A stretch of 64,000 bases of DNA, taken from contig JBEWZL010000102.1 of assembly GCA_045837725.1 (NCBI GenBank), positions 186,001-250,000 of the forward strand, written 5' to 3'. Shown piece after piece: positions 13,084-25,717 of this stretch. The first letter of the stretch is position 1, and each line of letters opens with the position of its first letter. The position numbers and the translations under genes are program-made. The notes below the pieces were generated by a model that did not search any database, was not told where the DNA came from, and worked only from the letters and a program-made list of their open reading frames with translations. This DNA is from Vermamoeba vermiformis (lineage: Eukaryota).

Positions 13084-15443
<2,360 letters not shown>

Positions 15444-15588
15444 AGAGACGTGTTGATACGTAAACGAGTTTATTTAACAATTGTTTCGTACAACGATCGG
15501 TGGCATCAGGTCAGGACTACATCTGCAAAAGATGGTGATTAGAACTGCAATTTAGATGAGTTGCAATGTATAAAAATTAATTATAGTG

Positions 15589-15733
15589 AGTGGTTCGGTG
15601 AATGGATTAGATCCTCTCATAAGTTAGCCGACTCGTCGAACACGCGGGCCAATAAAACATTGGTGATCCGCAGTCTCCGAGTCAGCAGGTCAAGGAGTGT
15701 CAAAAATGCCTTGACATTATCATCATTACCACT
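15589..15733 (-). ncRNA. Intronic box C/D snoRNA, predicted guide for the LSU rRNA U in AUGAAUGGAUUA
   Basis: Terminal stem AGTGGT/ACCACT; box C ATGATGA; D' CTGA; variant D box CCGA preceded by TAATCCATTCA, antisense to conserved LSU UGAAUGGAUUA. Confidence 0.75.
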
Positions 15734-15883
15734 ACTCGTCTGATAGTGTGGTTGTTATCTTTTTTGTACTTACTTGAGTAGTTTTACAAGCCACGACAGA
15801 CAGATGGGAGGAACACCTTTTTTCGCCTATCAAGCAAACAATAAGTATTAGAACATATAAGAAGTAATCTTAATAACTCAATA

Positions 15884-15984
15884 GGCCTGAAGATTTGCGT
15901 TCAGTATTAAAAAGCTCGATTTAGTTCAACACGACGATTTTCAGCGTTGGATTTCAAAGTTTCATCAGAACAAACGTTCAGGCC
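15884..15984 (-). ncRNA. Intronic dual-guide box C/D snoRNA targeting SSU rRNA GUUAAAAAGCUCG and GUUGGAUUUC
   Basis: 8-bp terminal stem GGCCTGAA/TTCAGGCC; box C TGATGA (15962-15967); D' CTGA (15941-15944) after GAAATCCAACG; D CTGA (15901-15904) after CGAGCTTTTTAATA. Confidence 0.85.
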
Positions 15985-16393
15985 CGCTGCGCAATCAATG
16001 CAATAAATTGAATAACTTACATTATGCACTCGGTGAGGGGGTACAAGCTGAGGGCCTTCTTATGTCTAGATCTCGAGGCTGCCCGAGCTGTATCTGGATT
16101 AGCGAAGACAAAACAAAAATAATGTAAATATTGCTTTAATATCGAATATTGCACAGATGTCTTCAGCGGATTTCAAGGAGAGTCCACCTGCTGCTTCTTG
16201 TAGTGCTTTTTTGGGATGGAGATTTGCATCCGATCCAAACAAAAAAAATTTAAATAAAATAAAAATAATTACCTTTAATAGTGCTCTACGTAGTGTAGCT
16301 GGTAGCGTCTATTTCATGAAACACTCTAAATAATTAAAAATAAATATTCGATCGAATCCAAAAAGGAATGATGAAAGAAGCAAAATAAATTAA

Positions 16394-16500
16394 CCCTCAG
16401 CAAGTCAATTATCATCAATAGCTTCCTAGTTCTGTGTGGTGCATGACTACTAGTGTTACTAGTGCAATCATAGGGAATGAACTGTAACACCAGAGGATGT
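16394..16500 (-). ncRNA. Candidate atypical intronic box C/D RNA
   Basis: CCC/GGG stem; degenerate C box ATGATT; C' TGATGA; D box CTGA; internal hairpin; no clear rRNA target. Confidence 0.45.
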
Positions 16501-17001
16501 GCAGGTACTCACCATTTAAGAGACGCTTAGAAGATCAACCACGCCCAAGCATTGTTAGTACTTGTGTGATGTTCATATGAGGATGATGGAAGATAATGAG
16601 GCGGCAGAAATGAAGAGAAGAGGTAGGAAGGAAAGGAAAAAAAAAGAAAAAGAAAAAAAAAAGAAAAAAAATAAGGAACCGGTCACTTTAGCCCCTTATC
16701 TAAATATTCGCTCATATCCAAAGTAACAGGTTACTGATTATCAATCGACGCCCAATGTACAGAGGACGTAAATTGCGTAAATTTGATCTGTCGCGGCTTA
16801 AATCGTCCATTAGCCCAGATTCTGTCAAACAATTCACATCTCAGCATGTAGCAATGTGTCGATCAATCGCGAGCTGAAAACTTGTTCAATTAACCTAATT
16901 TGGGAATGATGGGCCTTTGTCTCGCGCGACTGCGATTTACATAAATTCGGCCGAACCTTTCACTCCTATTTCAACCATTTATTGCAATTAAGGCACCACT
17001 G

Positions 17002-18300
17002 ATGACGTCGCGAACTTCGTGGAATCCATCCGACAATCTGCGCACAACACCGGTCATTTTAGATCCGGATTACTTAGCTTTGACAGTGCTAGTGACCTTT
17101 GTGTACCAAGCAGTATTTTATTTTATTGCAGCGGTATGCAAGTTCGATAAGGTCACAGATTTTGTAAGTATCTAATAAATTTAGAGAATAATTTCAGTTT
17201 TAATCGCATTTATCGGAGACCCGAGAGGGTTTAATCTCGTTCCATCGGAACAAAAATTAACCAAAATACTAACGTCTATCGTATAGTCCTATGGCACAAA
17301 CTTCATAGTCCTGGCAATTCTCACCTTCTTTTTGAATCAAACTTACTACATCCGTCAAATTATTCTCACCGGCCTCGTAACTATTTGGGCAATCAGATTA
17401 GGAGGCTTCTTATTGGTGCGCATTATTGCCATTGGTCAAGACAAAAGATTTGATGGCATGCGCGAAAAGCCGTTGCAGTTTTTACGATTTTGGATCTTCC
17501 AGTTCATTTCGATTTGGGTGATCTACTTGCCCATGTGCTTTGTTAACGCAGAGTACTACGATACTGCACTACAATGGAACGATTACTTTGGTTGGGGTCT
17601 CTGGCTCATCGGTTTCTTAATCGAGACGATTGCAGATCAGCAGAAGTTCAATTACCGACAAGACCCCAAGAACAAAGACCACTGGTGCGACGTCGGTGTT
17701 TGGTCGTGGAGGTAAGGGCATGTGATATTAAGAGCCTGCAGATACTAACAGTGTTGGCCAGTCGTCACCCCAACTACTTTGGCGAGATGTTGTGCTGGAT
17801 CGGTATCTGGGCCAGTGCAGCGTCCATTCTCGTGCTCGGTGAATGGGCCTCAGTGGTCAGTCCGCTCTACATCATCAACATCTTGTTGTTCCTCTCGGGC
17901 CTCAATCGACTTGAGCGCAGTGCTGATGACAAGTACGTGACTTGATGTTGATGCATTATCTCTTGCATTCCTCGCCCTGACGCCTGTCAACTGACACTTG
18001 CCTAATTAGGTATTGGAACAACGACGAGTACCGTCGCTACAAGAAGAGCACCAGTCCCATCATCTTGTGTCCTCCTCCACTCTATCGCGCACTCGCCAAA
18101 GCTCTCAAGTGCATTGTCTGCTGCGAGTTCCCGCTGTACACATTGTCACCCGGTACGTAGCGATGCAGATAGAATATATAAGTATACATCATAGTTGTGA
18201 TCATACTGACATGCACTCAGAAGAGAAAAAGAAGTTGGACGACAAGAAGCGCAGTGAAGAACGACGATTGGAAGAGGGCCGCAGCAGTGAGAACTCGTAG
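17002..18300 (+). CDS. DUF1295 / steroid 5-alpha-reductase-like membrane protein
   Basis: DKVTDF, WAIRLGGFL..RI..G.DKRFD, ETIADQQKF, GVWSWSRHPNYFGE motifs; multiple TM segments. Confidence 0.9.
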
Positions 18301-25612: not shown

Positions 25613-25633
25613 GACCTCTTCGGAGGTCATCTG

Positions 25634-25666
<33 letters not shown>

Positions 25667-25717
25667 GGCCCCTGCGCAAGGATGACACGCAAAATCGAGA
25701 AGCTGTCAACTTTTTTT
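25613..25717 (+). ncRNA. RNU6: U6 spliceosomal snRNA, copy 2
   Basis: Sequence identical to 10731-10835, including the ACAGAGA box and oligo-T terminator. Confidence 0.98.

Follow-up and report, generated by a model that had tools for sequence, protein, structure and literature searches.

Between two protein-coding genes of Vermamoeba vermiformis lies about 1.2 kb of DNA that raises a simple question: is it a spliced gene that codes for no protein and exists to carry snoRNAs in its introns? The window analysed here is a stretch of 64,000 nucleotides, and a preliminary description of it had proposed such a host on the minus strand at about 15460-16680, with a long C/T tract followed by five tiny exons and four introns. 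The core of that proposal stands. The locus is very probably a non-coding, spliced host in which each of the four introns is trimmed to one snoRNA and the exons are disposable spacers. Three kinds of evidence carry this reading: a spliced contig from a near-identical strain, the pattern of conservation at an orthologous locus, and the pairing of the predicted guides with the rRNA of the organism itself.

The host is separate from both of its neighbours. A divergent DUF1295 gene occupies 17002..17945 on the plus strand, with a transcript from 17002 or earlier, and the exon that was tested is 91% identical to a V. vermiformis protein in EukProt. The convergent Methyltransf_28 (NDUFAF7-type) gene at 13084..15443, also on the plus strand, ends with its stop at 15443. 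A DNA search of the 43-Mb assembly for a second copy of 15460-16700 returned only the self-match. Elsewhere in the window are two U6 snRNA genes of identical sequence and score, 15 kb apart (10731-10834 and 25613-25716, plus strand).

Four of the 22 public sequence runs listed were mapped to the locus, namely X1, X9, X20 and X22. Run X1 comes from a near-identical strain and yielded eight contigs, all at least 95% alike; its RNA label is a guess, but the introns of both neighbouring genes have been removed in it. Runs X20 and X22 derive from a relative about 90% identical (19 and 48 reads mapped, respectively), and run X9 is size-fractionated and possibly of DNA origin. One orthologous locus, L067, was obtained from a metagenome scan. 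Its sequence begins within intron 1, with exon 1 and the first half of snoRNA 1 missing, and it also contains the NDUFAF7-type neighbour in the same arrangement.

The spliced host was seen in a single run, X1, as one contig of 202 nt at a depth of 8.82, with zero depth in the bins that lie wholly within the four introns. Exon 1 (16513..16680, its 5' limit presumed) is followed by this contig to about 16569, as judged from binned depth. Intron 1 (16326..16512, 187 nt) opens with a GTGAGT donor at 16512, and in X1 position 16513 is joined to a sequence beginning at 16325, from which 5 nt of the window sequence are absent; the acceptor at 16326 aligns with an AG in L067. Exon 2 (16273..16325) measures 53 nt here, 5 nt less in X1 and 51 nt in L067. 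The joint that removes intron 2 (16088..16272, 185 nt, donor 16272, acceptor 16088) is absent from the X1 joint list, the alignment skipping a repeat at 16237-16271. We infer a joint at 16273/16087 from the contig geometry, since binned depths of about 57, 18, 30, 66 and 29 nt add up to 200 of its 202 nt. Exon 3 (16021..16087) is 67 nt long and 66 nt in L067, and its piece in X1, 16087-16020, carries a 2-nt deletion. Intron 3 (15827..16020, 194 nt, donor 16020, acceptor 15827) is removed at a listed joint in X1, reading CT..AC on the plus strand. Exon 4 (15774..15826) has 53 nt, or 38 nt in L067, and X1 covers 15825-15797 of it. Intron 4 (15523..15773, 251 nt, donor 15773, acceptor 15523) lies past 15797, where the contig ends, and is predicted from the GTAAGT and TTGCAG that L067 conserves; the junction 15774/15522 had zero coverage in the four runs mapped. 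Exon 5 (15465..15522), to which no reads mapped, contains an AATAAA at 15474-15469, and another AATAAA lies nearby in L067. No host junctions were found among the 19 and 48 raw reads of X20 and X22.

The proposed architecture of five tiny exons and four introns on the minus strand therefore holds, with splicing partly read in X1 and the donors and acceptors kept in L067. The third junction, 16021/15826, had been called exactly. For the first two, proposed at 16513/16308 and 16273/16093, the donors proved right and the acceptors wrong, as X1 joins 16325 and 16087 instead. We rejected 16309 and 16094 as main acceptors because X1 uses 16326 and 16088 and the AG at 16094 is gone in L067, although minor use is possible. 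A branch-point-like TACTAAC also occurs within exon 1 (16562-16556, minus strand), where X1 has no upstream intron. The introns had further been described as much longer than the local norm. This is correct against the two neighbouring genes, whose introns with checked ends measure 54, 57, 56 and 123 nt. Across the genome, however, length does not set a snoRNA host apart: on a different contig, five introns of a kinase gene, sized by eye, each run to about 180-280 nt, and one of them has a snoRNA match. Intron length alone therefore proves little.

A gene whose exons were translated, or whose spliced RNA had a function of its own, could carry the same snoRNAs as passengers. Short ATG frames of 10-14 amino acids do exist in the spliced host, and exon 1 has no comparable relative, both of which leave room for a micropeptide. 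The longest ATG frame is nevertheless 14 amino acids with the read-supported junctions (36 with those first proposed), and four frames tested within the host region gave no Pfam match. The X1 exons carry the deletions of 5 nt and 2 nt, which would shift a frame, while the X1 pieces of the neighbouring genes are free of gaps and differ by 0-3 substitutions. In L067, exons 2 to 5 are 53, 55, 38 and 69% identical to ours, compared with 76, 75 and 81% for neighbouring coding exons, and exons 2, 3 and 4 change length out of frame (51, 66 and 38 nt against 53, 67 and 53 nt). The earlier judgement that no credible ORF is present agrees with these results, exon 1 being outside the comparison, and we regard a micropeptide or a functional spliced RNA as highly improbable.

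What the exons lose, the intronic elements keep. Identity with L067 is 85/96 (89%) for the element of intron 2, 79/80 (99%) for that of intron 3 and 146/153 (95%) for that of intron 4, and snoRNA 1, of which L067 contains 38 nt, is identical over that length. In the relative sampled by X20 and X22, no part of the host other than the elements of introns 2, 3 and 4 received reads. Each of the four introns holds one snoRNA, all of them predicted RNAs apart from a piece of snoRNA 4 seen in X9. Two or probably three box C/D snoRNAs had been suspected; three are present, in introns 1, 3 and 4, and intron 2 adds an H/ACA RNA that had been missed. Boxes are non-canonical in places (ATGATTG for box C, CCGA for box D), and only one of the four RNAs, snoRNA 3, passes an Rfam cut-off. 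The host and three of its four RNAs are invisible to Rfam cut-offs and to protein-based annotation.

SnoRNA 1 (16394..16475, all snoRNAs here being on the minus strand) has a C box ATGATTG at 16471-16465, a D' box CAGA at 16434-16431, a C' box at 16417-16412 and a D box CTGA at 16400-16397. It matches the family snoZ221_snoR21b at 22.3 bits, under the cut-off of 44, and the guide ahead of its D' box is found as the same guide in the same position in the Rfam snoR21 alignment. SnoRNA 3 (15894..15973) belongs to Rfam SNORD36 (RF00049), with 38.8 bits against a cut-off of 30, and its copy in L067 scores 40.7 bits. SnoRNA 4 (15585..15737) is long for a box C/D RNA, at about 150 nt, with a C box at 15726-15720, a C' box at 15620-15615 and a D box CCGA at 15598-15595. 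A 60-nt internal hairpin occupies 15686-15627, and its fold is more stable than expected (z of -3.2 and -3.5). When changes in relatives are mapped onto it by eye, one pair (15682/15631) proves compensatory, two others become G-U and two are broken. Its 5' part gives a weak snoR1 alignment in Rfam (E 1.7), and no SNORD17 match was found at E up to 10. Two candidates for its D' box were discarded: the CTGA at 15685-15682 is altered in both relatives, and a TTGA does no better than 23 of 30 shuffles. The snoRNA 4 sequence in X9 is an adapter-flanked contig of 119 nt.

The RNA in intron 2 (16144..16238, about 95 nt) is read as a short H/ACA snoRNA, with an H box at 16212-16207, a guiding 3' hairpin at 16206-16151 closed by four pairs, and an AUA box at 16149-16147, preceded by a small, variable 5' hairpin. 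It is shorter than the standard form of two full hairpins, given as 120-160 nt in the part of PMC3542256 available to us, has no Rfam match and folds no more stably than shuffled sequences (z of -0.3); both strands of its pocket are unchanged in L067. A C/D reading of the same intron, based on a CTGA at 16166-16163, was rejected, as there is neither a C box nor an rRNA match ahead of that CTGA. We also observed that a U-rich run together with the first 14 nt of the 5' part (16249-16226) is identical in L067 and almost identical in X22, which seems more conservation than a short variable hairpin needs.

Targets were sought on the organism's own rRNA, with SSU numbering that includes the group I intron of the gene. 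Because the boxes were picked by eye after the matches had been seen, the shuffle counts given here are optimistic, and the support for the guides that does not depend on box choice is their conservation in L067. Five guides fit the rRNA better than shuffled sequences do. The D' guide of snoRNA 1 forms a 12-bp duplex with SSU 1757-1768, with its site at G1760 (0/30 shuffles did as well), the type of site known as yeast Gm1271/snR40, human Gm1328/U32 and plant snoR21. SnoRNA 3 directs its D guide to SSU A634, the site of human Am668 (1/30), and its D' guide pairs with SSU 646-658, with its site at G649, at the offset of human Gm683 (1/30). In snoRNA 4 the D guide makes 11 Watson-Crick pairs, placing its site at LSU U2455 (0/30), whose counterparts are Dictyostelium Um2580 and human position 3818. 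The pocket of the H/ACA RNA fits LSU U1814 with 6 + 7 bp, all 13 pairs Watson-Crick, at 14 nt from the box (1/200). We take U1814 to be the equivalent of human position 2632. That human position has been linked in the literature to SNORA38.

Two further guides are not above chance on their own. The 5' guide of snoRNA 4 covers about LSU 2976-2989, the snoR1/snR48/SNORD60 region, in an uncertain register (4/30 shuffles). The D guide that snoRNA 1 carries found no convincing target in SSU, 5.8S, LSU, U2 or U6, and its best LSU match contains three G-U pairs (8/30). The latter guide (16411-16401) is nonetheless identical in L067 despite the absence of a convincing target.

The predicted C/D sites are methylated in their human, yeast or Dictyostelium counterparts. 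Within our rRNAs, U2455 lies 33 nt after A2422, the U15 site, and G649 lies 15 nt after A634; the human offsets, taken from part of PMC11550049, are the same, from Am3785 to position 3818 (+33, SNORD17) and from Am668 to Gm683 (+15, SNORD19). In Dictyostelium, which belongs to the same supergroup, Am612 corresponds to human Am668 and Gm1266 to human Gm1328 (PMC8817022, Table 1), Um2580 lies 33 nt after Am2547, and Gm3124 lies 24 nt before Gm3148. According to the portions of that paper at hand, methylated counterparts exist in Dictyostelium for SSU A634, SSU G1760, LSU U2455 and probably LSU G2977.

Four conserved snoRNAs in a row could also be a polycistronic or independently transcribed cluster, released by endonucleases or driven by their own promoters, with the splicing incidental. 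Dictyostelium offers a precedent, since 46 of the 47 C/D genes of D. discoideum are intergenic, unlike those of the intronic host described here, and about half are clustered, according to the sections of PMC8817022 consulted; moreover, a piece of snoRNA 4 is all that X9 contains of the locus, and none of the host exons was seen in that run. Such a cluster, however, would not be expected to place exactly one snoRNA in each intron, nor to keep its splice signals while the exons diverge. The spliced product was observed in X1, and only 34-47 nt separate each donor from its snoRNA. We therefore consider a cluster of this kind very unlikely.

Under the preferred reading of a non-coding spliced host, one transcript of about 1.2 kb, presumably made by RNA polymerase II, would start in the short region that it has in common with the divergent DUF1295 gene, run along the minus strand and be spliced. 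Each intron lariat would then be debranched and trimmed to a single snoRNA and its snoRNP, a route described for intronic snoRNAs in the passages of PMC11028025 and PMC7277114 on which we draw, and the spliced exon RNA would decay. The distances of 55-67 nt from snoRNA to 3' splice site and of 34-47 nt from donor to snoRNA fit lariat trimming. The three C/D RNAs would guide 2'-O-methylation of SSU G1760, A634 and G649 and of LSU U2455, with a G near LSU 2977 as a probable further target of snoRNA 4. Pseudouridylation of LSU U1814 would fall to the short H/ACA RNA.

Whether transcription starts within the C/T tract is a separate matter. The tract reported earlier (16601..16678, minus strand) is real: its longest pure C/T run is 47 nt (16671-16625), its best 60-nt stretch has 59 pyrimidines, and no other 60-nt stretch on either strand of the window reaches 55. 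At about 75 nt, it coincides with the presumed start of the transcript or immediately precedes it, within the short divergent promoter region shared with the DUF1295 gene, and could be either a 5'TOP or a promoter poly-T element. If the transcript of the non-coding host began inside it, the tract would be a true 5'TOP and the host would be co-regulated with ribosomal protein mRNAs. That it precedes exon 1 on the sense strand, and has no counterpart in the window, favours this, as does the report that all animal non-coding hosts carry a 5'TOP (PMC7277114, in part). A 12-nt pyrimidine run lies about 75 nt ahead of the RPS3A start codon, and RPS8 has comparable stretches 35-60 nt before its own, compared with runs of only 5-6 in two non-ribosomal neighbours. 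These stretches, 35-80 nt upstream of the ATG, are only suggestive support, the comparison being a very small one of two genes against two. On the other side, the X1 contig stops near 16569, short of the tract, the genome contains 1,706 overlapping all-pyrimidine 35-mers, and L067 provides no orthologous exon 1. A domain search for LARP1_HEAT in the genome, run without a positive control, gave no match. Classical TOP sequences are also much shorter than this tract. We hold a true 5'TOP to be possible, but somewhat doubtful.

A further snoRNA, outside the host, also lies in an intron. A U18-like C/D RNA (L010 1474-1547, plus strand; 23.7 bits, below the cut-off) lies in an intron of the AGC-type kinase gene mentioned above, a host that is not ribosome-related. 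Genome searches for snR38 patterns, a U27 pattern and the U14 family gave no matches. The rRNA and snRNA searches brought some observations of their own. The nuclear SSU rRNA gene contains its group I intron at L005 8290-8630 (minus strand), and the LSU gene is followed, after about 0.9 kb, by a tRNA gene (L005 2304-2374). Two small-subunit rRNA copies with identical scores and opposite orientation (L002, L003) share one contig, probably as an organellar inverted repeat. There are three identical-scoring U2 genes and four weaker U2-like matches of 219 nt (about 57 bits) on two contigs.

In the main texts searched, mostly open-access, we found no publication on non-coding snoRNA hosts in amoebae or on snoRNAs of Vermamoeba. 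Non-coding snoRNA hosts have reportedly been noted in the brown alga Ectocarpus; no passage on them was found in the parts available of an Ectocarpus miRNA paper or of a Cryptosporidium paper. The annotation of protist snoRNAs is described as sparse (PMC12309372, in part). In Entamoeba histolytica only one snoRNA is intronic, according to the part of PMC3542256 that we used. Taken together, the non-coding host and the U18-like RNA in the kinase intron indicate that the picture of intergenic snoRNAs drawn from Dictyostelium and Entamoeba is not general for Amoebozoa. The suggestion, in part of PMC8817022, that intronization postdates the split of the supergroups is weakened, though independent gain remains as likely an explanation. 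Intronic positions are described as not ancestral, with snoRNAs that move (PMC3511168, in part), which favours independent gain.

In our view it is unlikely that amoebae, fungi and animals inherited from a common ancestor spliced non-coding hosts that begin with a pyrimidine tract and are regulated together with ribosomal protein genes, and that Dictyostelium and Entamoeba lost them secondarily. Were that so, V. vermiformis would hold a living amoebozoan 5'TOP host, an ancient double guide for Am668 and Gm683 whose two functions humans divide between SNORD36 and SNORD19, and a minimal H/ACA RNA in which a single hairpin works. At 1.2 kb, the locus is a compact system in which to test the lariat-based processing of snoRNAs, and TOP-type control beyond animals and plants.

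Compared with known snoRNAs, the C/D RNAs of this host recombine familiar guides. SnoRNA 3 shares with SNORD36/snR47 its score over the RF00049 cut-off and a D guide to the Am668/Am619 site. The second guide of SNORD36, however, is directed to LSU Am3703/Am2218, whereas the D' guide of snoRNA 3 is directed to the Gm683-type SSU site that human SNORD19 serves, a target different from the LSU site of U36/snR47. This double guide is widespread and not peculiar to the Vermamoeba host: of 64 metagenome matches to it, 58 possess both C and D boxes and represent 26 distinct cores, and among the 19 metagenome loci scanned 14 score above the SNORD36 cut-off. Many of the double-guide loci (L027-L090) are flanked by splice-like signals, and in L045 and L079 a second snoRNA lies about 0.5 kb from the double-guide RNA. 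A rough search for additional guides in 26 metagenome loci proved insensitive, missing those known in L067, and was left unused. SnoRNA 4 resembles SNORD17 in directing its D guide to the counterpart of human position 3818. Unusual length and an internal hairpin are features of human SNORD17 as well. Unlike SNORD17, snoRNA 4 combines a SNORD17-type guide and a snoR1/snR48/SNORD60-type guide in one RNA. Dictyostelium C/D RNAs measure 66-113 nt, none with a hairpin as long as that of snoRNA 4, in the portions of PMC8817022 at hand.

As a host, the gene is most readily set beside the vertebrate UHG (SNHG1) and GAS5 genes, which are likewise spliced and non-coding, with short, unconserved exons and one snoRNA per intron (PMC7277114, in part). 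UHG and GAS5 carry 8-10 snoRNAs, of the C/D type only, while the Vermamoeba host carries four and mixes C/D with H/ACA. None of the families U22 and U25-U31 named for UHG occurs in it, and there is no sign of orthology. A 5'TOP and turnover by NMD have been demonstrated for UHG and GAS5, and the Vermamoeba host shows the other three of the five defining features. Clusters I-V of Neurospora crassa, described in part of PMC2780460, are similar in being compact and intronic in non-coding hosts with short ORFs in a microbial eukaryote; there the snoRNAs are of the C/D type only. The architecture of the host is already known from UHG, GAS5 and the Neurospora clusters, and what is new here is an example from an amoeba.
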